Shown piece by piece: positions 1-39,398 of a stretch of DNA of 64,000 bases. The notes under the pieces are model-generated. The model searched no databases. It was not told the DNA's origin and was given only the letters and a program-made list of their open reading frames with translations. The number at the start of each line of letters is the position of its first letter. Position 1 is the first letter of the stretch. This DNA comes from Peptostreptococcaceae bacterium. GTDB taxonomy: Bacteria; Bacillota; Clostridia; Peptostreptococcales; BM714. A program made the translations under genes and the position numbers. The DNA lies in the NCBI GenBank assembly GCA_016649995.1, contig JAENWJ010000001.1, positions 41,460 through 105,459 on the forward strand. Direction: 5' to 3'.

Positions 1-498
1 CTTGATTATTATTCGAAAACGGCTTTTGAAATAATAAGCCGCGATATAGGCGCGCAGGGAACTGTGTGTGGCGGCGGAAGATATGATGGATTGGTTGAGG
101 AAATAGGAGGCCCTCCAACACCGGGTGTGGGTTTTGGACTGGGTGTTGAAAGACTTATTCTGACACTGGAAAGCAATAACATAGATATTCCAAAGCCGGC
201 AGGGCTAGACATATTTATTGCGGCAATGGGACAGAATGCTTTGGAAAAGGCGGTTGAGATTGTAGCAGTATTGAGGACATTGGGTTATAAAGCAGATTTC
301 GACCATCTGAAGAGAAGCCTGAAGGCTCAATTCAAATATTCGGATAAGAAGAATGCCTCATATACATTGGTAATAGGCGACAACGAATTGGAAAAGGGCG
401 ATGCTATTCTTAAGAATATGAAAACGGGAGAGCAGAGCGAAATAGCCATAAGCAATACTGCTGAAGAAATTGCGAATAAATTGAGTGAGGGGATGTAA
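1..498 (+). CDS. hisS: histidine--tRNA ligase, C-terminal part (5' end outside window)
   Basis: Frame 1 is open from base 1 (LDYYSKTAFEII...GGGRYDGL). Shows class II aaRS motif 3 plus an anticodon-binding domain; stop at 496-498. Confidence 0.9.
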   Translation, partial: LDYYSKTAFEIISRDIGAQGTVCGGGRYDGLVEEIGGPPTPGVGFGLGVERLILTLESNNIDIPKPAGLDIFIAAMGQNALEKAVEIVAVLRTLGYKADFDHLKRSLKAQFKYSDKKNASYTLVIGDNELEKGDAILKNMKTGEQSEIAISNTAEEIANKLSEGM

Positions 499-504
499 AA
501 GGAC

Positions 505-2283
505 ATGGCTGAACTTTTAAAAGGCTTGAAAAGAACACATATGTGTGGCTCATTGCGCAAGCAAAACGAGGGTGAAAGAGTAACCCTGATGGGTTGGGTA
601 CAGAAAAGAAGAAATTTGGGTTCATTAATATTTGTTGACATAAGAGATGTAACAGGAATATCGCAGATTATTTTCGATGAGGATGTTTCTAAAGAAGCCT
701 TTGAGAAAGCCGGCAAAATAAGAGGAGAATTCGTAATTGCCGTTTTAGGAACTGTTCATATAAGGCAATCAATAAACACGAAAATGGATACGGGTGACAT
801 AGAGATATATGCAGAAGAAATAAGAATACTTTCTGAGGCTGATATTCCACCAATACACATAAATGACGATGACGATGCAGGAGAGCGCCTTAGATTAATG
901 TATCGTTATCTTGACCTCCGAAAACCCAAAATGCAGAAGAATCTTATTATGAGGAACAAGGTTACCAAATCTGCAAGGGATTTTCTTAACAATGAGTCAT
1001 TTACGGAAGTGGAAACGCCAATGCTTACGAAACCAACACCTGAGGGGGCAAGGGATTATCTTGTTCCGAGCAGAGTTAATCCAGGCAAATTTTATGCATT
1101 GCCTCAGTCTCCACAAATATTCAAGCAATTGCTTATGGTATCAGGAATGGACAGGTATTTTCAGATTGCAAGATGCTTCAGGGATGAGGACCTAAGGGCT
1201 GACAGGCAACCGGAATTTACTCAAATTGACATAGAGATGTCCTTTGTAGAAGAAGACGATGTAATAAGTATAAACGAGAAGCTAATACGCCACATATTCA
1301 AGGAAGTAATGAATGTGGATGTGGAGATTCCATTCAAAAGGATATCCTATATAGAGGCTATGGAAAGATACGGTTCGGACAAACCGGACCTCCGATTCGG
1401 TTTTGAGCTTAAGAGCTTGAACGAGGTTCTTTCAGGAACGGAATTTAAGGTGTTTAAAACTGTTATTGACAATGGGGGATCTGTAAAGGGAATAAATGTT
1501 AAGGGATATGCTGACAAGTTTAGCAAGAAAGGCATTTCTAAACTTGAAAAGCATGTAAAGACCTACGGAGCAAAGGGTCTTGCTTGGATTAAACTTGAAA
1601 ATGGTGAAATAGTATCACCTATTCTAAAATTCTTGACAGCGGATGAAATTGCCGCGATAACTGAATTGTTTGAACTTGAAGAAAATGATTTAATACTTGT
1701 TGTTGCAGATGAACCCAAGGTTGTTTATGACTCACTTGGAAGCCTAAGAGTTCATGTAGCCAAGATGCTTGATATATTGGATGAAAGTAAATATGTATTC
1801 CTATGGGTAACCGAATTTCCACTGCTTGAATATGATGAGGAAAACAAAAGATATGTAGCTATGCATCATCCGTTCACTTCACCGGTAGATGCGGATGTCG
1901 AGCTGCTTGAAAAGGATCCGGGGAAAGTAAGGGCTAAGGCCTATGACATAGTGCTTAACGGAGTGGAACTTGGGGGCGGAAGCATACGAATCCATGACCC
2001 GAAATTGCAGAAAAAAATGTTCGAGGCATTGGGTTTCAGCGATGAAGAGTCTGAAAGGAAATTTGGATTCCTTATGAATGCATTTAAATATGGGACTCCG
2101 CCGCACGGAGGACTCGCTTATGGGTTGGACAGAATGGTTATGCTTATGACATTCAGTGAAAGCATTCGTGAGGTAATAGCTTTTCCCAAGACGCAAAACG
2201 CGACATGTTTAATGACAGAAGCTCCTGCAGAAGCGGATGAAAAACAATTGGACGAACTGAGCATAGCCTTGAAGCTTGACTGA
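505..2283 (+). CDS. aspS: aspartate--tRNA ligase
   Basis: 592 aa with FRDEDLRADRQPEFTQID and GGGSIRIH class IIb motifs and an N-terminal OB fold. Follows hisS as in many Firmicutes. Confidence 0.95.
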   Translation: MAELLKGLKRTHMCGSLRKQNEGERVTLMGWVQKRRNLGSLIFVDIRDVTGISQIIFDEDVSKEAFEKAGKIRGEFVIAVLGTVHIRQSINTKMDTGDIEIYAEEIRILSEADIPPIHINDDDDAGERLRLMYRYLDLRKPKMQKNLIMRNKVTKSARDFLNNESFTEVETPMLTKPTPEGARDYLVPSRVNPGKFYALPQSPQIFKQLLMVSGMDRYFQIARCFRDEDLRADRQPEFTQIDIEMSFVEEDDVISINEKLIRHIFKEVMNVDVEIPFKRISYIEAMERYGSDKPDLRFGFELKSLNEVLSGTEFKVFKTVIDNGGSVKGINVKGYADKFSKKGISKLEKHVKTYGAKGLAWIKLENGEIVSPILKFLTADEIAAITELFELEENDLILVVADEPKVVYDSLGSLRVHVAKMLDILDESKYVFLWVTEFPLLEYDEENKRYVAMHHPFTSPVDADVELLEKDPGKVRAKAYDIVLNGVELGGGSIRIHDPKLQKKMFEALGFSDEESERKFGFLMNAFKYGTPPHGGLAYGLDRMVMLMTFSESIREVIAFPKTQNATCLMTEAPAEADEKQLDELSIALKLD

Positions 2284-2375
2284 TAATATACCAAGAGTTC
2301 CGAATTGGCGAGTGTTTCCGCCTTTTGGAACTTTTGTTTTAGTTGAATATATTCAAAGTCTGTAATATAATAATT

Positions 2376-2392
2376 ATACCGTATACAGGTAT
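2376..2392. promoter_or_regulatory. candidate CsoR-type operator (ATACC-N7-GGTAT inverted repeat)
   Basis: ATACCGTATACAGGTAT lies directly upstream of the RBS of the csoR-like gene. It resembles the GC-flanked palindromes bound by CsoR-family repressors. Confidence 0.35.
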
Positions 2393-2405
2393 AAGGAGGA
2401 TTGAA

Positions 2406-2675
2406 ATGGCGAATTACGACAAGGATGCTGTTCAGAGAAGACTTAGAAGAATTGAAGGACAGATAAAAGGAATACAGAGAATGATAGACGAAGAACGGGG
2501 ATGCAACGATATTCTTATCCAGGTCTCCGCTGTGCGTTCAGCAGTAAATAGGGTTGGGGGCATTGTACTTGAGAATCATTTGAAGCATTGTATGACAAAA
2601 TGCAAGAGCGAAGAATCGGAAAAAGAACAAACAATTGACGAGCTTATCGAAACCATGATAGGATTTTTGAAATAG
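2406..2675 (+). CDS. CsoR/RcnR-family metal-sensing transcriptional repressor
   Basis: RLRRIEGQIKGIQRMI with a Cys...His...Cys pattern (CNDIL, HLKHC). Start moved to the ATG at 2406, which follows AAGGAGG; the track ORF starts at 2343. Confidence 0.8.
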   Translation: MANYDKDAVQRRLRRIEGQIKGIQRMIDEERGCNDILIQVSAVRSAVNRVGGIVLENHLKHCMTKCKSEESEKEQTIDELIETMIGFLK

Positions 2676-2685
2676 GAGTATAAAC

Positions 2686-3114
2686 ATGTATAGAGTCGGA
2701 GAAGTGGTAAATATTAAAGGGGAAATGGCTCAGGTAAAATTGATGAGGCATTCAGCGTGTGGAAATTGCAAAGCATGTAAAATTGGTGATGATGACGGGA
2801 GCGTATATTCAGATGTATACAATGAATTGAACGCAAAAGAAGGAGACCATGTTGAAATTAGTATGGAGGAAGGGAATCTTCTCGGTGCGGCAGCCATACT
2901 TTATGGATTTCCACTCGTTACCATGTTGTTTAGTGTATTTATAGTAAACTTCATATTGGAAAGAATTAGTGTCGGTCACCATGAATTGATTTTAGGGGCA
3001 GTAGTTTTGCTGTCATTGACTACAACTTTTGCAATAATCAGAGCTAAAAATGGTAAGTTCATAAAATCAAAAAAATATCTTCCTGTGGTAACCAAAATAA
3101 TTGATAAGGGGTGA
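2686..3114 (+). CDS. RseC/MucC-family membrane protein
   Basis: 142 aa with an N-terminal CGNCKAC motif followed by two hydrophobic helices. Confidence 0.6.
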
Positions 3115-3118
3115 TTGC

Positions 3119-4354
3119 ATGAAATACGAATATCTTAGAAAGGCTGATCCTGAAATAATGGATGTATTAAATAAGGAATTGTATAGACAAAGGAACGGAA
3201 TAGAATTGATTGCATCGGAGAATTTCATTTCAAAGGCTGTTATGGAAACGATGGGAAGCACTCTAACAAATAAATATGCTGAAGGCTATCCCGGCAAAAG
3301 GTATTATGGAGGATGCGAAGAAATTGATGTGGCTGAAGAATTGGCTATTGATCGATTAAAAAAGCTTTTTGGAGCAGAACATGCAAATGTACAGCCTCAT
3401 TGTGGGTCCGCGGCAAATTTTGCAGTATATCAGTCAGTATTGCAGCCGGGAGACGTTGTAATGGGCATGTCGCTTACGCATGGAGGACATTTGACGCATG
3501 GAAGCCCTGTAAATCAGTCAGGAAAGCTTTACAAATTCATAAGCTACGGAGTCGATAAGGAAACGGAAAGAATCGATTATGATGATGTTGAAAAAATTGC
3601 AAGAGAGAGCAAACCCAGGTTGATTGTAGCGGGAGCAAGCGCATATTCACGGGAAATAGATTTTGAAAAATTCAGAATGATAGCTGATGCAGTAGGCGCG
3701 TACCTTATGGTTGACATGGCTCATATTGCAGGATTGGTTGCTGCAGGCCTTCATGTAAATCCTTGCCCTTATGCCGATTTTGTAACGACGACCACGCATA
3801 AAACATTAAGAGGACCAAGGGGCGGAGCCATTCTTTGCAAAGCGGAATACGCAAAGATAATTGACAAGGCCATTTTTCCGGGGTCTCAAGGCGGACCGTT
3901 GATGCATGTAATTGCCTCGAAAGCCGTTTGTTTCAAAGAAGCTGCTACAGATGAATTCAAACGATATCAAGAGCAGATAATAAAGAATGCCAAAGTATTG
4001 GCAGCGGAATTAAAGATAAGAGGCTTCAGAATTGTTTCAGATGGAACAGACAACCATATGATGCTGCTTGATTTGCGAAGCAAAAATATCACAGGCAAGG
4101 ATGCGGAAAAAAGGCTAGATGAAATAGGCGTAACTGTAAATAAGAACACCGTTCCATATGATTCCGAAAGTCCTTTTATCACCAGTGGAATTCGTTTGGG
4201 GACTCCAGCGGTAACAACAAGAGGCATGCGTGAATCGGATATGGCTGTTATTGCTGAAATAATAAAAGGTGCAATTGAAAGGGATATTGACGACGATTCA
4301 TTGAAAAACGATGTAAAAGAACTTTGCAAAAAATTCCCTTTATACGAACAATAA
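3119..4354 (+). CDS. glyA: serine hydroxymethyltransferase
   Basis: Carries the SHMT PLP motif [14 protein letters not shown]. Start placed at ATG 3119 after AAGGGG. Confidence 0.95.
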
Positions 4355-4403
4355 ATATAAATCAATCTTTATTATCTTTCAACATAAAAAGCGTAAAAAG
4401 GAT

Positions 4404-4440
4404 ATAATATACAGGAGGTCTAAGACCTCCTGTATATTAT
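4404..4440 (+). terminator. hairpin terminator after glyA
   Basis: Perfect 17-bp stem ATAATATACAGGAGGTC / GACCTCCTGTATATTAT with a 3-nt loop. Confidence 0.7.
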
Positions 4441-4488
4441 ATTTAAAAAGATTGAATATTTAAGATTATAAGGGAAAAGGGTGATTTT

Positions 4489-5742
4489 ATGGAGCCGCTA
4501 GCTGTTAGGATAAGACCTGAAAAATTGGAAGATGTTATAGGGCAAAAGCATATTATCGGAAATGGAAAATTGATAAACAGCCTTTTGGAAAAGAAACAAT
4601 TGATGAATATGATTTTTTACGGTCCTCCAGGGACGGGAAAAACTACGGTTGCCAATCTGCTCGCAAGATCTACGGACAGAAAATTTTACAAGATAAATGC
4701 CACAAATGCCGGTGTGGGAGACTTGAAAAAAGTGATTGGTGATCTTGATACACTCTTTACAATGAATGGGGTTGTATTGTATGTAGATGAGATTCAGCAT
4801 TTCAATAGGAAACAGCAACAGGTTCTTTTGGAACATACAGAAAACGGAAAAATAGTTCTTATTGCAAGCACGACAGAAAATCCTTTTCAATATGTATACA
4901 AGGCACTTTTGAGTCGTTCAATGCTTTTTGAGTTCCGCTCAATAAGTCCTAATGATATGGTTGAAGGAATTAAGAATTTAAAAGAGCGAATTGAAATTGA
5001 ATCGGGCAAAGAAATTGTTTTTCAGGAAAATCCCTTATTGAGAATGGCTCAGCATGCAAATGGCGACTACAGAAAATTTCTTAACTATATTGAAATAGGC
5101 CTATTGGTTGAAAATGGACAGAAAGTGCTGTTTGATGAAAATATGGCAGAAAAGATACTACAAAAAAAAGTGTTCAGTTATGATAGGACCGGTGATGAAT
5201 ATTACGATATAATAAGCGCTTTCCAAAAATCAATACGAGGAAGCGACCCGGACGCATCGGTTCATTATCTTGCAAGGCTAATAGAGGCGGAGGATATAAA
5301 GCCAATATGTAGAAGATTGCTGGTAATAGCTGCTGAGGATATAGGGCTAGCATATCCCAACGCCATAAATATTGTAAAGGCTTGCGTCGATTCTGCGCTA
5401 TTTGTAGGGCTCCCTGAGGCAAGAATAATATTATCTGAAGCAACACTTTTACTTGCTCTTATGCCCAAGTCGAACTCAGCTATGGTTGCCATAGAAAATG
5501 CATTGGCGGATATTGCAACAGGAGAAATTGATCAAATACCCAATAATATAAGAGACAGCCACTTTTCTGGAGCTAAGCAGCTGAATAGAGGAAAAGGTTA
5601 TAAATATCCTCACAGTTACGACAATCACTATGTAGATCAACAATATTTGCCGGATAATTTAAAGAATAAAAATTACTACGAATCATCCCGGTCAGGCCAA
5701 GAAACAAAATTTTACGAGTTCAATAAAAAGATCAGGAAATAA
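4489..5742 (+). CDS. rarA: replication-associated recombination protein A (AAA+ ATPase)
   Basis: Walker A GPPGTGKTT, Walker B LYVDEIH and a MgsA-type C-terminal domain. Confidence 0.88.
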   Translation: MEPLAVRIRPEKLEDVIGQKHIIGNGKLINSLLEKKQLMNMIFYGPPGTGKTTVANLLARSTDRKFYKINATNAGVGDLKKVIGDLDTLFTMNGVVLYVDEIQHFNRKQQQVLLEHTENGKIVLIASTTENPFQYVYKALLSRSMLFEFRSISPNDMVEGIKNLKERIEIESGKEIVFQENPLLRMAQHANGDYRKFLNYIEIGLLVENGQKVLFDENMAEKILQKKVFSYDRTGDEYYDIISAFQKSIRGSDPDASVHYLARLIEAEDIKPICRRLLVIAAEDIGLAYPNAINIVKACVDSALFVGLPEARIILSEATLLLALMPKSNSAMVAIENALADIATGEIDQIPNNIRDSHFSGAKQLNRGKGYKYPHSYDNHYVDQQYLPDNLKNKNYYESSRSGQETKFYEFNKKIRK

Positions 5743-5744
5743 AG

Positions 5745-5773
5745 TTGACAAAATTACTAGGGTATTATATAAT
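5745..5773 (+). promoter_or_regulatory. sigma-A type promoter of the Rrf2-nifS-nifU-mnmA operon
   Basis: TTGACA (5745-5750), 17-nt spacer, TATAAT (5768-5773). Confidence 0.7.
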
Positions 5774-5820
5774 CTCCTTGAATCCCGAGCAATAAACTAG
5801 GGTTTTAAGGAGATGATTTT

Positions 5821-6279
5821 TTGAAGCTTTCAACTAAAGGAAGATATGGATTAAGGGCAATGTTTTATCTGGCGTTGAAATACGGTGAAGGATCTGTGCC
5901 TTTAAGTGAGATAAGCAATGAACAAAGCATATCGATAAGTTATTTGGAGCAGCTTTTTTCATCCTTGAGAAAAAAAGATTTAGTTGTAAGCTTAAGAGGT
6001 GCAAATGGAGGATACAAACTTGCTGCATCACCCGATGAAACTGTTGTCGGAGATATTTTAAGGGCTCTTGAAGGTTCATTGGCACCAACCGATTGCGTTA
6101 TGGATGGGGAAGAAGAAAAATATTCTTATAATGACCAATGCGTAACACAACGGGTATGGAGAAAGATAAAGGATAGTATTACTGAAGTGGTTGATTCTAT
6201 CACATTGCAGGACATGATAAATGATTACAATGAAATGAACAATTGCCGAAGTTGCAAAATTGAAAGTAAATTAAAATAA
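5821..6279 (+). CDS. Rrf2-family transcriptional regulator (IscR/CymR-like)
   Basis: MKLSTKGRYGLRAM winged-HTH N-terminus. TTG start lies 8 nt after AAGGAG. Heads the cysteine desulfurase operon. Confidence 0.88.
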   Translation: MKLSTKGRYGLRAMFYLALKYGEGSVPLSEISNEQSISISYLEQLFSSLRKKDLVVSLRGANGGYKLAASPDETVVGDILRALEGSLAPTDCVMDGEEEKYSYNDQCVTQRVWRKIKDSITEVVDSITLQDMINDYNEMNNCRSCKIESKLK

Positions 6280-6293
6280 TGGGGGATGATATC

Positions 6294-7451
6294 ATGAAGA
6301 GGAATGTGTATTTAGATTATTCGGCTACAACACCGGTAAAGAAAGAAGTATTTGAAGCGATGGTGCCGTTCTATACTGATAATTTTGGTAATGCCTCAAG
6401 TATTTACAGGATTGGTAGAGAAGCTAAAGACGTTATCGACAAATCTCGCGAAACAATAGCTGAAACAATTAATGCCTCTCCGAAGGAAATATACTTTTGC
6501 GCAGGCGGTTCGGAAGCGGACAATTGGGCGCTGAAGGGAATTGCCGAGGCAAACAGTGCAAAGGGAAAACACATAATTACAAGTAAGATTGAACATCATG
6601 CAATTCTTCATACCTGCGAGTATCTCGAAAAGAGAGGGTTTGAAGTAACATATCTTGATGTAGATGAATATGGAATGATTAATCTGAAAGATCTTGAAAA
6701 TGCGATAAAAAATGAAACCATACTTATCTCGATAATGTATGTAAATAACGAAATAGGAACGATTCAGTCAATAAAAGAAATCGGGAAAATAGCGAAGAAA
6801 AACGGTGTTTACTTCCATACCGACGCAGTTCAGGCTTATGGACATATAAAGATGGATGTGGAGGATCTTGGGGTTGATTTAATGACGATGTCATCTCACA
6901 AAATTTATGGACCCAAGGGCATTGGAGCTCTTTATATAAAAAGAGGAACACACATCGATCAGCTTATACATGGAGGCGCACAAGAAAAAAACATGCGTGC
7001 AGGAACTGAAAATTTGGCTGCAATTGTTGGATTTGGGAAAGCCGCATCCATTGCTGACGAAACACTTGATGAACATCGAAGCCGATTAATCGTATTAAGG
7101 GATAGAATGATAAATGAAATCTTGAATAAAATCGATCATGTAAAGTTAAACGGGCCTCGTACCGAAAGACATCCCGGAAATGTCAACTTTTGTTTCGAAT
7201 TCATAGAGGGAGAGTCTTTGCTTCTACTTTTGGACAATGAGGGAATTGCCGCTTCAAGCGGTTCTGCGTGTACATCGGGCTCATTGGATCCTTCACATGT
7301 TCTTATGTCCATAGGGTTGCCGCACGAAATAGCTCATGGTTCCCTTCGATTGACAATTGGGGATTTCACAACCAAAGAAGATGTTGATTATACGGTTGAA
7401 AAACTTATCGGAATAGTAGAGAAGCTGAGAGCGATATCTCCGCTTCATTAA
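6294..7451 (+). CDS. nifS: cysteine desulfurase (NifS/IscS type)
   Basis: SSHKIYGPKG PLP-lysine motif and the SGSACTSG active-site Cys loop. Start at ATG 6294 after GGGGGA. Confidence 0.92.
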   Translation: MKRNVYLDYSATTPVKKEVFEAMVPFYTDNFGNASSIYRIGREAKDVIDKSRETIAETINASPKEIYFCAGGSEADNWALKGIAEANSAKGKHIITSKIEHHAILHTCEYLEKRGFEVTYLDVDEYGMINLKDLENAIKNETILISIMYVNNEIGTIQSIKEIGKIAKKNGVYFHTDAVQAYGHIKMDVEDLGVDLMTMSSHKIYGPKGIGALYIKRGTHIDQLIHGGAQEKNMRAGTENLAAIVGFGKAASIADETLDEHRSRLIVLRDRMINEILNKIDHVKLNGPRTERHPGNVNFCFEFIEGESLLLLLDNEGIAASSGSACTSGSLDPSHVLMSIGLPHEIAHGSLRLTIGDFTTKEDVDYTVEKLIGIVEKLRAISPLH

Positions 7452-9275: not shown

Positions 9276-11909
9276 ATGGAAAAAATGGGTCTTAACGAAA
9301 TTAGAAAGAACTTTTTAGAGTTTTTCGAGTCAAAGGAACACTATGCACGAATGAGTTATTCACTTGTACCTAAAAATGACAAAAGCCTTCTGCTTGTAAA
9401 CGCAGGGATGGCGCCGCTTAAAACATATTTTATGGGAACCGAGGTACCACCCAACAAGAGAATGGCCACATGCCAGAAATGTATTCGGACGGGTGATATC
9501 GAAAATGTAGGTATTACTGCGCGCCATGCTACTTTTTTTGAAATGCTTGGAAATTTTTCATTTGGAGATTACTTTAAACGTGAATCCATTAAATGGGGAT
9601 GGGAATTTGTGACCGAATGGCTCGATATGCCGGTGGACAAATTATGGGTTACTGTTTACGAAGATGATGATGAAGCTTATGAAATATGGGAAAAGGAAAT
9701 AGGAATTTCCAGGGAACGAATTGTACGACTGGGTAAAGATGACAACTTTTGGGAAATTGGAACAGGCCCATGCGGACCTTGTTCAGAGATATATTTTGAC
9801 AGAGGCGAAAAGTTCAGTTGCGGCGCAGATACGTGCAAACCGGGTTGCGATTGCGATCGCTTCATAGAATTCTGGAACCATGTATTTACTCAATTTGATA
9901 AAGATAATGAAGGAAACTATAATCTATTGCCAAAACCCAATATAGACACAGGAATGGGGCTTGAACGAGTAGCCTGCATAATGCAAAATGTGGAATCAAT
10001 ATTTGAAATTGACACAATAAAATATGTGCTTGACGGAGTTATAGAACTAGCGGGCAAACAGTATGGAAAAAATCGCAAAGATGACATATCCATAAGAATA
10101 ATCACAGATCATATAAGGGCTGTTACCTTTATGACTGCAGATGGCATTATCCCTAGCAATGAAGGAAGAGGTTATGTATTAAGAAGGTTGCTTAGACGAG
10201 CTGCAAGGCACGGAAAGCTTATGGGAATAGAAAAACAATTCCTAACTGAACTTGTTGACAGAGTAATTGAAATATCAAAAGATGCGTACCCGGAATTATT
10301 TGAAAAACGCGAATACATCAAAAAGGTGCTTGAGATAGAAGAAAAACGTTTTCAGCAGACAATTGATTCAGGGATAGAAATTCTTAACGGATACATTGAG
10401 TCCATGAAAAAAGACAGCAATGAAATGCTTTCAGGCAAGGATGCATTTATTTTGTATGACACTTACGGTTTTCCGCTTGATCTAACAAGAGAAATCTTGG
10501 AGGAAATCGGATGCACTGTAGATGAAGAGGAATTTGAAAAGGAAATGACCATTCAGAAGGATAGAGCAAGACAAGCTAGAAAAAATCAAAATGATGTAGG
10601 ATGGGAGTTTGGAGCGGATCTTGAAAAACTCAAAACTGAAAGAACCGAATTTGTGGGATACGATATATTTGAAGCGGAAGCAGAAGTCCTTGCAATTATA
10701 AAAGAAGGAATGCCTATTGAAGAAGCTAAAAAAGGTGAAGAAGTCCAAATAATCATGAATGTCACTCCATTTTACGCAGAGAGCGGAGGCCAAGTAGCTG
10801 ACAAGGGTTTTATTAAAACATCTAAGGGATTGTTTGAAGTTTCAGATTGCAAGAAAAAAAACAATCTATATATACACTACGGAATAGTAATAGAAGGATT
10901 GCTCAGTGTTGGTGAAACAGTCGTTTCAAAGATTGACAAAAAGAACAGAATGGATACGGCAAGAAATCACACTGCTACACATATTCTTCATAGGGCTCTG
11001 AAGAATATTTTGGGTGAGCATGTAGAACAGGCGGGATCATTAGTAACCCCAAACAGACTTAGATTTGACTTTACTCATTTCGACAATGTAAAGAATGCGG
11101 AATTGGATGAAGTAGAAGCAATGGTTAACGAGAAAATTTTTGAAGCTCTTCAAATTGATATTTCTGAAATGGATTTGGATAAGGCAAAAGAACTTGGAGC
11201 AACAGCACTTTTCGGTGAAAAATACGGCAAAATAGTAAGAGTTGTCAAGGTTGACGATTACAGCACCGAACTTTGCGGAGGAACCCACCTAAAGAATACA
11301 AGCGAAGTGGGACTATTTAAAATATATTCAGAAGGCGGGATAGCTGCAGGAGTTAGGCGAATAGAAGCCTTTACAGGAAGAAAGGCATATGCATATGTTA
11401 AGCAGGCGGAAAAAGAAATGAATAATATTATGACATTGGTAAAAGCCAATAATGAAAATGAAGTTGAAGGTAAAATTATTCAAATACTTGATGAATTGAA
11501 AATATCAAAGAAAACATGTGAAGAATTCAAAAAAGAAATGGCATCCTCATCAATGGACGAATTGCTTGGCGGCTTGAAAAAGATAAACGGATTCGATGTA
11601 GTTGCAGGCAAATTAGATGATTTAGATGCGGAAACCTTGCGTGGTCTTGGAGATAAAATATTGAACAAGATTGAAAATGGGGTTGTAGTTCTTGTATCGG
11701 ACGATGGAGAAAAATTGAACTATGCCGCTATGGCGGACAAGGAAGCCATAGCAAACGGAATCCATTGCGGAAAATTGATTAAAGATGTTGCAAAAATTGC
11801 TTCCGGAGGAGGCGGCGGCCGGCCAAACATGGCTCAAGCCGGAGCCAAGGACAGAAGCAAGGCATTGCTTTCTTTGGAACAGGTATATAAGTATGTGGAA
11901 AGCATTTAA
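9276..11909 (+). CDS. alaS: alanine--tRNA ligase
   Basis: About 877 aa with a class II catalytic core, the HTATHILH editing-domain motif and a C-terminal GGGGGRPNMAQAG DHHA1-like motif. Start at ATG 9276 after GGAGGTG. Confidence 0.96.
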   Translation: MEKMGLNEIRKNFLEFFESKEHYARMSYSLVPKNDKSLLLVNAGMAPLKTYFMGTEVPPNKRMATCQKCIRTGDIENVGITARHATFFEMLGNFSFGDYFKRESIKWGWEFVTEWLDMPVDKLWVTVYEDDDEAYEIWEKEIGISRERIVRLGKDDNFWEIGTGPCGPCSEIYFDRGEKFSCGADTCKPGCDCDRFIEFWNHVFTQFDKDNEGNYNLLPKPNIDTGMGLERVACIMQNVESIFEIDTIKYVLDGVIELAGKQYGKNRKDDISIRIITDHIRAVTFMTADGIIPSNEGRGYVLRRLLRRAARHGKLMGIEKQFLTELVDRVIEISKDAYPELFEKREYIKKVLEIEEKRFQQTIDSGIEILNGYIESMKKDSNEMLSGKDAFILYDTYGFPLDLTREILEEIGCTVDEEEFEKEMTIQKDRARQARKNQNDVGWEFGADLEKLKTERTEFVGYDIFEAEAEVLAIIKEGMPIEEAKKGEEVQIIMNVTPFYAESGGQVADKGFIKTSKGLFEVSDCKKKNNLYIHYGIVIEGLLSVGETVVSKIDKKNRMDTARNHTATHILHRALKNILGEHVEQAGSLVTPNRLRFDFTHFDNVKNAELDEVEAMVNEKIFEALQIDISEMDLDKAKELGATALFGEKYGKIVRVVKVDDYSTELCGGTHLKNTSEVGLFKIYSEGGIAAGVRRIEAFTGRKAYAYVKQAEKEMNNIMTLVKANNENEVEGKIIQILDELKISKKTCEEFKKEMASSSMDELLGGLKKINGFDVVAGKLDDLDAETLRGLGDKILNKIENGVVVLVSDDGEKLNYAAMADKEAIANGIHCGKLIKDVAKIASGGGGGRPNMAQAGAKDRSKALLSLEQVYKYVESI

Positions 11910-35894: not shown

Positions 35895-36518
35895 TTACAT
35901 AAACCTAAATACGCCTTTAATTTGTCCTAGAACCATTAAATCATCTGTTACAATTATAGGATTCATTGAACTGTTCTCAGGCTGAAGCCTTATATGGTCT
36001 TTTTCTCTGTAGAATGTTTTTACTGTAGCGGAATCGTCTAAAAGCGCAACGACCATGTCTCCATTCTCAGCATCGTGTTTTTGTTTTACCAAGACATAAT
36101 CTTGGTCATGTATGCCTGCTTCAATCATACTGTCTCCGCTTATTCTAAGCATGAAGTAAGTTCCATCTTTCGAAAATTGTTCAGGAATAGGAAAATGGAA
36201 ATCAATATTTTCAACAGCCAAAATGGGTGTGCCGGCTGCGACTGAACCTACAACTGGAACCATTACGACGCCTTCTTTTCCCTTGCCTTGAATGTTCAGC
36301 TTTTGATCATTAAGCTCTATTGCTCTAGTTTTGGTTGCATCCCTCTTTATATATCCCAACTTCTGAAGAGTAACTAAATGATTGTGAACAGAAGAAGTGG
36401 ACTTCAATCCGACAGCTTTGCAAATTTCCCTGACTGAAGGCGGATACCCTTTTTTATTTACCTCTTCAACAATGAATTCTATGATGTTGACCTGCTTGAC
36501 TGTCAAATCCTGATACAT
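35895..36518 (-). CDS. lexA: LexA repressor
   Basis: Winged-HTH N-terminus, VAAG cleavage site, S24 peptidase Ser (GDSM) and Lys. Start at ATG 36518 after GAGGGAGG. Confidence 0.94.
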   Translation of the reverse strand: MYQDLTVKQVNIIEFIVEEVNKKGYPPSVREICKAVGLKSTSSVHNHLVTLQKLGYIKRDATKTRAIELNDQKLNIQGKGKEGVVMVPVVGSVAAGTPILAVENIDFHFPIPEQFSKDGTYFMLRISGDSMIEAGIHDQDYVLVKQKHDAENGDMVVALLDDSATVKTFYREKDHIRLQPENSSMNPIIVTDDLMVLGQIKGVFRFM

Positions 36519-36578
36519 AAACTGCGCCTCCCTCAAAGATTTACTTCTTTGATTATAACACATAAAACAATCCATATG

Positions 36579-36592
36579 CAAACATAGGTTCG
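36579..36592. promoter_or_regulatory. SOS (Cheo-type) box upstream of lexA
   Basis: The minus strand reads CGAACCTATGTTTG, which matches CGAAC-N4-GTTCG with one mismatch. It sits between the recombinase stop and the lexA start. Confidence 0.7.
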
Positions 36593-36593
36593 A

Positions 36594-37706
36594 TTAATCG
36601 TTTTCAAGCCATTCAAAATTCTTGATAATTTCGCGTTTTTGATCTCTTTTGTGGGCTGAATACAATTGTGTGGTAGTGACATTGTCATGGTCTAGTAAAT
36701 TTTTCACATCGTAGATGGAAAAGCCTTCCTCAATCAATGATGTCGCAGCGGTTGCTCTAAGCTTGTGCGGACTGTATCCGTTTTCCTTGGTCGTTCCTAA
36801 AGCGATAGCTGTATATTTTTTTACGATATCCCTTATTGCCCTTTGAGTAAGGCGTTTTTTTTGCATAGAGAGAAGAAGTGCGTCTTCCCCTTTGGATGCG
36901 TACCGGCTCCGTTCAATATTAAGGTAGTCTGTAAATGCGCCCTCAACCGACTTGTTTATTGGCATTGCCGATTCTTTGCCTCTTTTTCTGTAAATAAGGA
37001 ATTCTCCGCGGCTTAAATTGAAAGATGAAATATTTAATTGCTGAAGCTCCATAAGACGCAGTCCATATGTTGTGAACAAAAGCAGTATCAGCATATCCCT
37101 GTGCCTTGTTTTTTCCCAATATACCATTTCTTTTTCAGTTAAACCTTTTCCACTTGCTACACAGTCGAACATTATGCGAACCTCGGCTATATCAAGCCTC
37201 TTAATCGCATCAGGTTGCGGTTTTGGCAACTTTATCGGGTTGAAAGCATCAGTTATATTGCTAGGCATAATTTCTTCGCGATATAGGAATTTAAAAAGCA
37301 CGCTTAATGATGATTTTTTCCTTGATAGCGATCGATTATGGTTTTCCATAATTATTGACTGTTTTCCCTGTTCAATTAGATATCTTGAACAATATCCACC
37401 AATATATCGATTGACATCCTTTGCCGTTATGCTTTTAATGTCATCTATGGGAATCTCTCGGATTGAAGAAGCCGAAGAAAGAGGACTTTCGCTTATCATA
37501 TAGTTAAGGAAAAATTTTAAATCAAGCAAATAGGCAAGCCGTGTAGAAATTGCAACCGAACTCTGGAGATACAAAAAATAATCGTATAAATAGTCTGGAA
37601 GAAGTTTTTCGAGTTCCAGGCATTCCTGAATAATGCCATGTTCATAGGCGACCACGTTGGTAGGTTTCGACGATTTATTGTGAACCTTTAGAATTTTGTT
37701 TAACAT
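36594..37706 (-). CDS. tyrosine site-specific recombinase, XerS/XerH-sized (370 aa)
   Basis: C-terminal catalytic pattern: GLRLMEL (Arg), HKLRATAATSL (HxxR) and LDHDNVTTTQLYSAH (Tyr). An extended N-terminal domain makes it longer than the ~300-aa XerC/D. AT-rich like the host, and it lies outside the island repeats. Confidence 0.85.
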   Translation of the reverse strand: MLNKILKVHNKSSKPTNVVAYEHGIIQECLELEKLLPDYLYDYFLYLQSSVAISTRLAYLLDLKFFLNYMISESPLSSASSIREIPIDDIKSITAKDVNRYIGGYCSRYLIEQGKQSIIMENHNRSLSRKKSSLSVLFKFLYREEIMPSNITDAFNPIKLPKPQPDAIKRLDIAEVRIMFDCVASGKGLTEKEMVYWEKTRHRDMLILLLFTTYGLRLMELQQLNISSFNLSRGEFLIYRKRGKESAMPINKSVEGAFTDYLNIERSRYASKGEDALLLSMQKKRLTQRAIRDIVKKYTAIALGTTKENGYSPHKLRATAATSLIEEGFSIYDVKNLLDHDNVTTTQLYSAHKRDQKREIIKNFEWLEND

Positions 37707-37725
37707 GAATAATTTCCCCCTTATT

Positions 37726-37750
37726 AACTATTCCCTAAATATACAATTAA
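37726..37750. repeat. left copy of the island-bounding direct repeat (attL-like)
   Basis: AACTATTCCCTAAATATACAATTAA versus AACTATACCCTAAATATACATTTAA at 45937-45961. 23/25 positions are identical, with a 13-bp perfect core CCCTAAATATACA. Confidence 0.75.
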
Positions 37751-37860
37751 TATTCAGTAGGTTACCTTTTACAATACTGTTATATTGTGGTACAGAGTCG
37801 TCGCGGAATGTGTGACGCTCTTAGTATATTTTAGGAATAGTTGAATGTCAATAAAACTCA

Positions 37861-37916
37861 AAAACTCTCCTACTACGTAAGATAAGCATCTTGCGGAGTA
37901 GGGGAGTTTTTTTTAT
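37861..37916 (+). promoter_or_regulatory. stem-loop plus T8 immediately upstream of rep, with the RBS inside the 3' arm
   Basis: AAAACTCTCCTACT (37861-37874) pairs with AGTAGGGGAGTTTT (37897-37910), 13 of 14 positions plus one G-T pair, across a 22-nt loop. T-run follows, then the rep ATG at 37917. Confidence 0.45.
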
Positions 37917-39026
37917 ATGCGTAAAAAGGGACGGACGAAGAAGAAGGACCAAAAGAAGCTTAGCGACTGCATGGCCATGTCGGAGCAAAAAGAGTTTATC
38001 AATTCCAAAATTGGAGACCAGGAGCTACAAATTCCTTGTTGTCTTGAAAGCCCAAAGGGCTTATATAGATTAATTCCGACAAGAATGCAGGACCATCTCC
38101 AAAACCCTTCCAAATACGAGTACTTGGCTTGCTACACAAAATTTGGAAAATTGGACTATCACCCGTACAACTTGGACAATTTCGAAGCTATACTGATGAA
38201 CAACTTCACGCAGTCGGTGGCGCTCATAGATTCAACGCAGATCCTTTTACAAAACGAATTGACTGGAGAATATAAAGTCGTTCAACCTCGGGAATCTTGC
38301 CGCTACTTTGAAAAAGGCCGGAAGAAAATCAAGAAAAAAATATATAAACGCCTGGGGCATAACAAAAACCAAAAGGGAATATTTCTGACGGTGACGTATG
38401 ATCCTAAAATTACGAGCCGGTACAAGGCATGGGAGAGCGTGGGGAAAGATATTTCAAAACTGTTGGAAGCAATGAATAAGCAGCGCAAACGGAATCGAGG
38501 GATTAAAGAGCGCCTAACTTATTTATGGGTGATAGAAGAGCAGCAGAACACCGGCTGGCCACATGTTCATTTTTTCTTTCCAGGGATCAAGTCTTTGCTA
38601 GGGTTTAGAAAAATCAAACAACTGTGGGGGAAAGGGACGGTGGAAGTACATAGCGACAAGAGTTGCAAGGTTGCAAGCTATGTCACAAAATACATAACGA
38701 AAATGTCGGGCTTCTCGCTTTTGGGCTTGGCTCACATGTGGCATAACAAACGCAGGCTTTATGGCTTTTCGAGATCCTTTGCAGTGAAAACACCGAAGGA
38801 AGAAAAACAAAGTTACAAACTTGTGGGCATGTCAAACAACAAGATGGGCTTCGGGAAATGGGACTGTGAGTTTAAAGAATATACATGGCTTGGCACTGTG
38901 GTGTGGGAATGGCTGCTTGGAGAAAACGCAGCATTCGAGGACCCAGGAGGGAAAGATCTCCTGCTAGAAAACAATAATTTCATAATGAAAGCAAACTTGA
39001 AAGAAGAAGAGGAGGACTGGTTTTAA
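37917..39026 (+). CDS. HUH-superfamily rolling-circle replication initiator
   Basis: Motif 1 GIFLTVTYD (38376-38402), motif 2 HVHFFF (38562-38579) and motif 3 YVTKYITK with two Tyr spaced as in phiX174-type Reps (38679-38702). Confidence 0.8.
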   Translation: MRKKGRTKKKDQKKLSDCMAMSEQKEFINSKIGDQELQIPCCLESPKGLYRLIPTRMQDHLQNPSKYEYLACYTKFGKLDYHPYNLDNFEAILMNNFTQSVALIDSTQILLQNELTGEYKVVQPRESCRYFEKGRKKIKKKIYKRLGHNKNQKGIFLTVTYDPKITSRYKAWESVGKDISKLLEAMNKQRKRNRGIKERLTYLWVIEEQQNTGWPHVHFFFPGIKSLLGFRKIKQLWGKGTVEVHSDKSCKVASYVTKYITKMSGFSLLGLAHMWHNKRRLYGFSRSFAVKTPKEEKQSYKLVGMSNNKMGFGKWDCEFKEYTWLGTVVWEWLLGENAAFEDPGGKDLLLENNNFIMKANLKEEEEDWF

Positions 39027-39247
39027 TGATAGATCCATTTATGCTTGTGGTGCTTTTACTCATACAGGTGGTTTTTCAATGGGGCATTGCGTTTCTTTTC
39101 ATTGTGCTCATTAAAAAATATCTAGGGAAATCAATCAAGAAAGGGGTTGGAAGTGTTGGAGAATCAATCAAGGATAGGCTCGGAAGCATACAACAATCTT
39201 TTGCAGGGAGCGACGATAGCAAAGTTCCGGAAGATCCTGTGGAATGA
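39026..39247 (+). CDS. small membrane protein
   Basis: 73 aa. The ATG overlaps the rep stop (TAATG). N-terminal ~30 residues are hydrophobic (FMLVVLLLIQVVFQWGIAFLFIVLI). Confidence 0.55.
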   Translation: MIDPFMLVVLLLIQVVFQWGIAFLFIVLIKKYLGKSIKKGVGSVGESIKDRLGSIQQSFAGSDDSKVPEDPVE

Positions 39248-39398
39248 CATCGACCCGACCGTGGCGGTGATGAAGATATGCCGGACGTTCAATAAACAAA
39301 AGTTATTGCAGAAAAACAAAAACAAAGAAATGGTGATTGCTAACCTGCGGGCTTTTTATCAAGCTCGCTTGGACGAATTGGAAGGGGTGAACCTATGA
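39153..39398 (+). CDS. hypothetical protein (overlapping frame; start uncertain)
   Basis: Its stop overlaps the next ATG (ATGA coupling). GTG 39153 lies 6 nt after AAGGGG. It overlaps the 3' end of the preceding ORF by ~95 nt; an alternative start is ATG 39270. Confidence 0.35.
   Translation: MLENQSRIGSEAYNNLLQGATIAKFRKILWNDIDPTVAVMKICRTFNKQKLLQKNKNKEMVIANLRAFYQARLDELEGVNL

Follow-up and report, generated by a model that had tools for sequence, protein, structure and literature searches.

Single-recombinase Xer systems appear in reviews and surveys as XerS, XerH, and XerA only. In Streptococci and Lactococci, XerS is paired with difSL, an imperfect palindrome with a conserved asymmetry between its arms that lies immediately 5′ of the recombinase gene at the terminus (PMC1914069). 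In Helicobacter and Campylobacter, a single recombinase of ∼360 aa, XerH, is found with its near-palindromic site, difH, beside its gene. Integration at dif without an integrase of its own, by use of the host Xer enzymes, defines the integrative mobile elements exploiting Xer (IMEX; PMC5357621). In TLC-phi and the gonococcal genetic island, which lack an integrase and use the heterodimeric XerC/XerD of Proteobacteria, the attachment site attP consists of one dif arm and the centre with a degenerate other arm, and insertion yields one functional and one defective site (PMC5357621). Here we analyzed a 64,000-nt stretch of DNA from a Peptostreptococcaceae bacterium (GCA_016649995.1, contig JAENWJ010000001.1, 41,460-105,459 of the forward strand), which we call the window and whose positions we use as coordinates throughout. 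An earlier reading of this DNA, the original prediction, had proposed that an element without an integrase exploits a single-recombinase Xer/dif module of a Clostridia-type organism. Our analysis favors, with a probability of roughly 0.8, the reading that Peptostreptococcales carry a XerS-like recombinase that forms a module with a dif site at the chromosome terminus and that, in the window, an 8.2-kb integrase-less, virus-like element has inserted into this site via the host Xer enzyme.

The recombinase in question, the product of a 370-aa open reading frame (ORF) that we call xer, lies outside the direct repeats of the element and, as had been claimed, is the sole recombinase near it; a tblastn search found no second tyrosine recombinase in the window. 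The Pfam domain Phage_integrase (PF00589) covers the C-terminal residues 200-353, and R217, K244, H314, R317, H340, and Y349 were unchanged across a 19-member alignment and match the catalytic residues of XerD. When we compared the protein to the NCBIfam hidden Markov models (HMMs), XerS gave the best score, 153.8 bits in an end-to-end alignment that included the long N-terminal domain, followed by XerC (123 bits), XerD (115 bits), and XerA (113 bits). Models of integron and phage integrases gave 40 bits or less. The 19 family members that we tested likewise all had XerS as their top model (best E-value 2.7e-46), with XerD, XerC, and XerA next and integrase models far lower. The curated cut-offs are 267 bits for XerS (NF003462), 335 for XerC, 330 for XerD (TIGR02224/TIGR02225, ∼330), and 220 for XerA; the XerS cut-off was reached by no sampled relative, the top sampled score being 206 bits. 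Since its score lies below 267 bits, the recombinase is not a member of XerS. Against solved structures, XerA scored 59, XerD 52, and XerH (PDB 5jjv) 32.3 bits, so that XerH is the weakest match among solved Xer proteins, and it comes from another host phylum. The original prediction had called the protein XerS/XerH-like: its size fits both enzymes and the affinity to XerS stood, whereas membership of XerS and the resemblance to XerH did not. Nor does the locus look like canonical XerC/XerD, given the two scores, a length of 370 aa rather than ∼300 aa, and site arms that are alike rather than dissimilar. On these comparisons, the recombinase is a separate XerS-like family within the Xer clade, neither XerS itself nor XerH-like.

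The family is widespread. Among 5.8 billion proteins we found thousands of relatives, and the best 120 (61-92% identity, 365-410 aa) came from many Peptostreptococcales genera, including Alkaliphilus, Crassaminicella, Natronincola, Caminicella, Intestinibacter, Wukongibacter, and 'Clostridium' aceticum/formicaceticum. A HMMER search of 1.84 billion cluster representatives returned 124 clusters at E < 1e-30. In a scan of one genome per species we collected 264 relatives, which include Clostridioides difficile, Terrisporobacter, Romboutsia, Tepidibacter, and Fusibacter, and we retrieved 80 genome loci, each covering xer ±10 kb, for work on the site and on synteny. Identity between xer orthologs across genera was 60-92%, C. 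difficile included. A second tier of ∼356-aa proteins (P0151-P0177; 30-34% identity) also had XerS as top model, at 180-205 bits and again under the cut-off, which places the window protein in a broad, uncurated XerS-like clade and suggests that an uncharted clade of this kind reaches well past Streptococcaceae. The GC content of xer is 0.381, against 0.372 in the host flanks and 0.436 in the element, and xer was free of the element in 80/80 species-representative genome loci. By composition and distribution, then, xer is a host gene of vertical descent and not cargo of the element, and the description of it as AT-rich like the host and followed by lexA proved right. In Paramaledivibacter (L019) we observed an extra 377-aa XerS-like paralog (4781-5914; 35% identity to the window protein) that ends ∼540 bp short of a diverged dif-like site at 6457, and the regular ortholog is at 9965-11098.

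The site beside xer is a 32-bp imperfect palindrome in a 13-6-13 layout, made up of L arm ACTATTCTTTAAA, centre TGTATA, and R arm TTTAGGGAATAGT. Its arms match at 11 of 13 positions and keep a fixed asymmetry of TTT vs CCC (TTCTTTAAA vs TTCCCTAAA); by analogy, such likeness with conserved asymmetry is the pattern of a single-recombinase site. In a survey of the homologs for an adjacent palindrome, 53 of the 80 genome loci proved to carry the consensus AACTATTCTTTAAA-TGTATA-TTTAGGGAATAGTT, each as a single copy with 0-4 mismatches. The centre and R arm were near-invariant (49-53 of the 53 loci at each position), positions 5-10 of the L arm varied, and the flanks were unconserved. In C. difficile, for instance, the site reads ACTAATCTTTAAA-TGTGGA-TTTAGGGAATAGT and precedes the xer ortholog by 136 bp. 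In the window, the 32-mer consensus (≤3 mismatches) had one match against 0.00 expected, and the 18-nt half-site three against 0.07. An exact-match scan for the centre with the R arm yielded 77 metagenome loci, 72 of them with the full site and ∼45 with the recombinase gene adjoining. A Bacillus-type 28-bp dif (≤6 mismatches) was found neither in the window nor in any retrieved locus.

Upon analysis of the closest relatives (82-92% identity; L003-L008 and the metagenome locus L134), we could read the empty site directly: purB, a terminator hairpin, ACTATACTTTAAA-TGTATA-TTTAGGGAATAGT, a gap of 18-21 bp, and the xer ATG. The original prediction had placed the whole palindrome in the 5′ region of the gene when no element is present, and this is what these loci show. 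The distance from site to gene is 18-21 bp in the clade of the window and mostly 35-1000 bp elsewhere, with several kb in some lineages and up to >10 kb. Loci in which site and gene are 2.5-9 kb apart were considered as carriers of extra cargo and rejected, the intervening genes being ordinary host genes of host GC content. Compared with XerS/difSL, the locus shares one tyrosine recombinase in the range of ∼356-370 aa with a long N-terminal domain and XerS as its top HMM, and it shares the asymmetric palindrome 5′ of the gene at the terminus. It differs in its score, in its host order, in the linkage of the gene to lexA, in the layout and, apparently, the sequence of the site (difSL is 31 bp), and in the variable distance from site to gene.

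Several lines of evidence place the site at the terminus. In the window, both GC skew and gene orientation flip at ∼36-46 kb; the cumulative G-C maximum falls at 46,000, which is attR, and upon removal of the element it moves to 35,600, ∼2 kb from the junction. Among relatives, we compared the 39 loci that extend 4 kb or more to both sides of the site: GC skew was greater left of the site than right of it in 39/39, and its sign changed from plus to minus in 31. The locus lies near the middle of the chromosome (48-54%) in six of nine chromosome-level records, namely CP121688 (49.8-50.3%), two C. difficile records (50.2-50.7% and 48.4-48.9%), Wukongibacter M2B1 (49.5-49.8%), Fusibacter (52.4-52.8%), and Terrisporobacter (53.4-53.9%). 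It is off-centre in Peptacetobacter (67%), Geosporobacter (99.5%), and W. baidiensis (5%), possibly because these records do not start at oriC. Skewed heptamers were set aside as terminus evidence; their polarity switches at the site, yet this is confounded with gene orientation. The conserved palindrome beside the gene at the GC-skew terminus supports the proposed Xer/dif module. We encountered none of the findings that were to speak against it, that is, an affinity of the recombinase to phage integrases, travel of the gene with the island, or a site away from the terminus.

The element in the window spans 37746-45956 (8,211 bp) and is bounded by direct repeats at 37721-37759 and 45932-45970, which lie at a distance of 8,211 bp and share 79% identity over 39 nt. 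Comparison with the empty sites resolved its ends into reciprocal hybrids that share the central region (Table 1). In the sense of xer, attL reads ACTGAATATTAAT-TGTATA-TTTAGGGAATAGT (its L′ arm can also be written ACTgAatatTAAt) and is separated from the ATG by exactly 20 nt (37707-37726), the distance that had been claimed, and attR reads ACTATACTTTAAA-TGTATA-TTTAGGGTATAGT (R′ arm alternatively TTTAGGGtATAGT). From attL and attR we deduced the attP of the element as ACTGAATATTAAT-TGTATA-TTTAGGGTATAGT, with one faithful arm and centre and the other arm degenerate. We detected no integrase or transposase among the element's ORFs of at least 70 aa with Pfam, or in ten ORFs that were also compared with PHROGs. 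The claim of an integrase-less, IMEX-type insertion is supported by the reciprocal hybrid sites together with the empty sites in close relatives. The arrangement is that of TLC-phi and the gonococcal genetic island, with one functional and one defective site predicted here from sequence; unlike them, it involves a XerS-like host enzyme in a Gram-positive anaerobe, and no XafT-like activator was recognized in the element. A folded, CTX-like attP was considered and rejected. In the circular form, 22 nt of an inverted copy (37824-37845) can pair with 45934-45955, which amounts to one arm and 5 nt of the centre; complementarity stops before the second arm, whereas in CTX-phi two inverted full dif-like sites fold into a hairpin that restores arm, centre, and arm.

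The gene content of the element is virus-like. Its rolling-circle replication (RCR) initiator, Rep, has just three homologs in 5.8 billion proteins and no relatives in IMG/VR. We consider the element non-filamentous because it encodes an FtsK/HerA-type ATPase (with no Zot match), a lysin, and a BclA_C-like protein; judged by its genes, it is an RCR, integrase-less, probably tailless virus-like element. In this it resembles the PhiCjT23/FLiP-like phages of Flavobacterium (PMC9719478), lipid-containing icosahedral single-stranded DNA phages of 6-8.4 kb that are non-filamentous, encode the RCR Rep first, lack an integrase, and form dif-flanked prophages. Those phages differ in that they use the 28-nt XerC/XerD dif of Bacteroidetes; we detected no sequence similarity to them.

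A relative of the element was found as a circle. One of the three Rep homologs is encoded on it: the metagenome contig L083 (JGI 3300027758, Ga0209379_10004022) is 8,093 bp long with a terminal overlap of 127 bp, and hence represents a 7,966-bp circle. It has the same gene order as the element (Rep 38% and ATPase 37% identity) and no integrase domain. Its single dif-like site at 7207-7238, ACTATTCGCTAAA-TATACA-ATAGCCGAAATAC, has a good R′ arm, an identical centre, and a degenerate other arm. This implies that the element family exists as free circles with the attP architecture that we deduced for the window. Contigs sharing the sample prefix of L083 include the host-type dif sites L093 and L154. 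Two short-read contigs from other samples, L002 and L084, begin exactly at the att core, one of them at the boundary of L arm and centre and the other inside the R arm; these starts could be the branch in an assembly graph between occupied, empty, and circular forms, but are only suggestive.

An exact-match half-site scan of IMG/VR revealed a second occupied site. In L089 (UViG_2588253727_000001), an inovirus-like prophage at 1-5634 with Rep_trans, Zot, and a coat-like protein stops precisely at ACTGGTTTTTAAA-TGTATA-TTTAGGGAATAGT, a site that lies 125 bp 5′ of a xer ortholog. The metagenome contig L143 (1.22 Mb) is 98.7% identical to L089 from the site onward and unrelated before it, and on this alignment is the matching empty site. 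This prophage resembles the VGJ-phi-type filamentous phages in its RCR Rep and Zot, in a double-stranded attP that is a full dif-like site, and in its integration at the host dif; it differs in its host, which belongs to Peptostreptococcales and has the XerS-like module, and is not a Vibrio with XerCD. With the element and the L089 prophage at the same kind of site, two unrelated integrase-less rolling-circle elements use this dif. The survey for other insertions that had been proposed thus came out empty for the 80 genome loci and yielded this one prophage in IMG/VR. Five metagenome matches with degenerate L arms were rejected as occupied sites, since they lie inside ORFs or unrelated DNA and their number fits 19-mer chance, and a degenerate-pattern scan of IMG/VR gave 13 chance-like matches with no xer or element homologs. 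The original prediction noted that dif targeting had been proposed for some PM2-like proviruses; the possibility has indeed been mentioned for PM2-like prophages that lack an integrase (PMC1950889).

Because dif lies ∼20 bp from the xer ATG in this genus, insertion displaces a candidate native promoter. In the empty site, the sole promoter-like match is TTGCCT-17-TATACT (9/12), with its -10 element inside the L arm of dif. In the occupied site, the element supplies a promoter-like sequence close to consensus that reads outward, 117-145 bp upstream of the xer ATG, with no terminator found between. The spacer and -10 element of this sequence coincide with an additional copy of R arm plus centre in inverted orientation (37824-37842). 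The original prediction held that the promoter region of xer is replaced by the insertion; the loss of the candidate native -10 agrees with this, whereas the outward promoter offers a substitute. In L084, whose Rep is 91% identical, TTGACT-17-TATACT is kept (92-120, - strand), although the 80 nt between promoter and att core have diverged. Le Bourgeois et al. speculated that the linkage of dif and xerS serves to autoregulate xerS or to guard dif, in that an insertion would sever xerS from its promoter (PMC1914069). The element may have solved this problem.

Table 1. Features of the xer-dif locus and of the inserted element in the window
Feature	Coordinates	Strand	Basis and remarks
lexA, 207 aa from ATG at 36518	35895..36518	-	Directly downstream of xer, same strand; TIGR00498 223 bits
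xer-like host tyrosine recombinase, 370 aa	36594..37706	-	ATG at 37706; Pfam PF00589, NCBIfam XerS best
attL, xer-proximal hybrid site	37727..37758	-	Host R arm 37727-37739, TATACA 37740-37745, element degenerate L′ arm 37746-37758; comparison with empty sites of L003-L008
Outward promoter-like TTGACA-17-TATACT in element	37823..37851	-	Consensus match, 11/12; reads towards attL and xer
Strong hairpin followed by T8, right before rep ATG	37860..37914	+	-30.9 kcal/mol, z = -8.0; rep ribosome-binding site in 3′ half of stem
Rolling-circle replication initiator (Rep)	37917..39026	+	PF23343 7e-15, phrog_3419, alignment; HUH motif PHVHFFF, YxxKY motif
FtsK/HerA-type P-loop ATPase, presumed genome-packaging	40436..41089	+	phrog_2666 2e-18; weak HerA and FtsK matches; no Zot match
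Presumed virion proteins: beta-rich 155-aa and 145-aa ORFs, then 277-aa protein	41763..43556	+	Repeats; BclA_C 1.2e-5, below cut-off
Glucosaminidase-type lysin, hydrophobic C-terminal tail	45167..45730	+	PF01832 1.8e-13
attR, xer-distal near-intact dif	45938..45969	-	Element R′ arm 45938-45950, centre 45951-45956, host L arm 45957-45969; 2 mismatches to consensus
Host purB (46024-47457) and terminator hairpin (45980-46012)	45980..47457	-	Abut dif directly in empty-site relatives

Within the element, the 277-aa ORF (42723-43556) carries three tandem 87-bp (29-aa) repeats at 42809-43072, 90-91% identical, before its BclA_C-like (C1q/TNF-like) C-terminal domain. A 24-bp tandem duplication (GGTPEFLT twice) was seen at 44361-44408 in the ORF at 43846-44493. 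Both repeat-bearing ORFs likely encode variable virion surface proteins. AlphaFold2 gave an unusable model for the 155-aa ORF (confidence score pLDDT 46), and for the 145-aa ORF a model of pLDDT 65 that produced generic jelly-roll/beta-sandwich matches alone, at a template-modeling score of ∼0.47. The hairpin before rep may act in attenuation or termination, or it may be a structure of the replication origin; L084 has a hairpin at the equivalent place (∼130-182) with a different stem sequence. Several small ORFs complete the element. One element protein (P0124) matches, at 100% identity, a hypothetical protein (locus tag JJE29_00425) from an NCBI metagenome-assembled 'Peptostreptococcaceae bacterium', probably the genome from which the window derives.

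On the other side of xer, the order xer-lexA was kept in most of the 80 loci, often with a Met-gamma-lyase-like gene next; genes around the site other than lexA were poorly conserved between genera, unlike the site itself. Just past the xer stop codon (∼36555-36593, - strand) we observed a Cheo-box (SOS-box)-like sequence, CGAACCTATGTTTG, and an extended -10 sequence, TGTTATAAT. This implies that lexA is apparently not co-transcribed with xer, and lexA seems to be under its own SOS-regulated promoter.

Some of our observations weigh against the reading of a terminus module parasitized via Xer. No site turned up within 10 kb of xer in roughly one third of the 80 genome loci, and nine metagenome loci have the site 5′ of the gene as elsewhere, yet with its L arm instead of its R arm towards xer. 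None of the 80 species-representative loci was occupied, and the occupied sites number two overall (the window and L089), so such integration is either rare or under-sampled. The promoter calls are consensus matches alone, and the outward-promoter arrangement was not evident in the distant circular relative L083. Lastly, five loci (L028, 13399-14418; L030; L039, 15591-16622; L079; L143) contain, 3-6 kb from xer-lexA, a XerC/D-like paralog of 339-343 aa that scores ∼215 bits on the XerC/XerD HMMs, under their cut-offs. This paralog lends itself to an alternative in which dif is real but served by two recombinases, the 370-aa protein and a second Xer paralog encoded elsewhere (the XerC/D-like protein, or a CodV/RipX homolog), with one arm each. 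The conserved asymmetry of the arms would suit such a division, as would the several recombinases outside mobile elements in C. difficile 630 (PMC2784873). However, the arms agree at most positions, a likeness also seen in difSL and difH, which are each served by one recombinase; the paralog was found neither in the window nor in most loci; and a lone recombinase gene closely linked to the site is characteristic of a single-recombinase system (PMC1914069). We consider two recombinases unlikely, though the best placed of the alternatives.

Two further explanations appear much less probable. One would make the recombinase either a site-specific regulator or the integrase, resident or domesticated, of an old island, and the palindrome its private attB with no role in dimer resolution, where elements land solely because it is a recombination hot spot. 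Orthologs are indeed named merely 'tyrosine-type recombinase/integrase' by NCBI. This explanation fits poorly with a site that coincides with the GC-skew switch in all 39 loci open to this test, that maps close to 50% of the chromosome in six of the nine chromosome-level records, that occurs singly in each locus, and that is extremely conserved between genera in which its neighbors except lexA are not; the HMM affinity of the protein to Xer families and not to integrases also speaks against it, and we regard it as very improbable. The other explanation, which we rate slightly lower still, concerns the insertion: the HUH Rep endonuclease of the element, or host homologous recombination over the shared 19-bp arm and centre, would have integrated the element instead of Xer. 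The element does encode an RCR Rep, and the identity between attP and dif is enough for short-homology recombination. Yet the crossover falls in the central region of a site of the tyrosine-recombinase type, and the same site is occupied by two unrelated elements whose Reps belong to separate families, PF23343 and Rep_trans. Moreover, the circular relative retains of dif exactly the arm and centre and nothing else, and the pattern matches that established for Xer-hijacking elements (PMC5357621).

Taken together, we return to a XerS-like recombinase with a terminus dif, which most likely resolves chromosome dimers as a pair; we infer that its action depends on FtsK/SpoIIIE and that integration of the element depends on Xer. 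During integration, the host Xer would recombine the attP of the element, which mimics the R arm and centre, with dif. The sequence shows both products. One is the presumably defective hybrid beside xer, attL, composed of the element's L′ arm and the host R arm. The other is the near-intact dif on the far side, attR, composed of the host L arm and the element's R′ arm, which the host could still use. The outward promoter of the element, overlapping the extra R-arm copy, would probably take over transcription of xer, and binding of Xer may in turn control this promoter.

A wider proposal, which we offer tentatively and with a good deal less confidence than the reading above, is that this is a third bacterial single-recombinase Xer system. 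Peptostreptococcales, including C. difficile, would resolve dimers by a XerS-like enzyme whose 32-bp dif either serves also as the promoter of the enzyme's own gene or lies next to that promoter. The system would be parasitized by at least two unrelated rolling-circle viruses, of which the non-filamentous one might beat the linkage safeguard (PMC1914069) by means of an outward promoter with an embedded Xer-binding arm, thereby putting xer under Xer control. Integration of non-filamentous, integrase-less viruses at dif has already been proposed for the PhiCjT23-like phages (PMC9719478); what is new is therefore the host system, the finding that it is parasitized in Gram-positive anaerobes, and perhaps the promoter device. 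C. difficile and Alkaliphilus are absent from the dif survey of Kono et al. (PMC3025954), and in the searchable literature, with subscription journals outside its coverage, we found nothing decisive that describes a clostridial Xer/dif module or a XerC/D of C. difficile.

If this reading is true, single-recombinase Xer systems extend past Streptococcaceae, Epsilonproteobacteria, and Archaea, and XerS itself may be part of a far larger clostridial clade of XerS-like proteins. The hijacking of Xer, presumed here for both elements, would likewise be extended to a XerS-like enzyme in Gram-positive anaerobes, by a filamentous as well as a non-filamentous virus. The window would also provide a natural test case for the idea that linkage of dif and xer protects against insertions. 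The 32-bp site and its recombinase are a potential tool for site-specific integration in clostridial genetics, and C. difficile and its relatives would have a defined dif and a candidate dimer resolvase.

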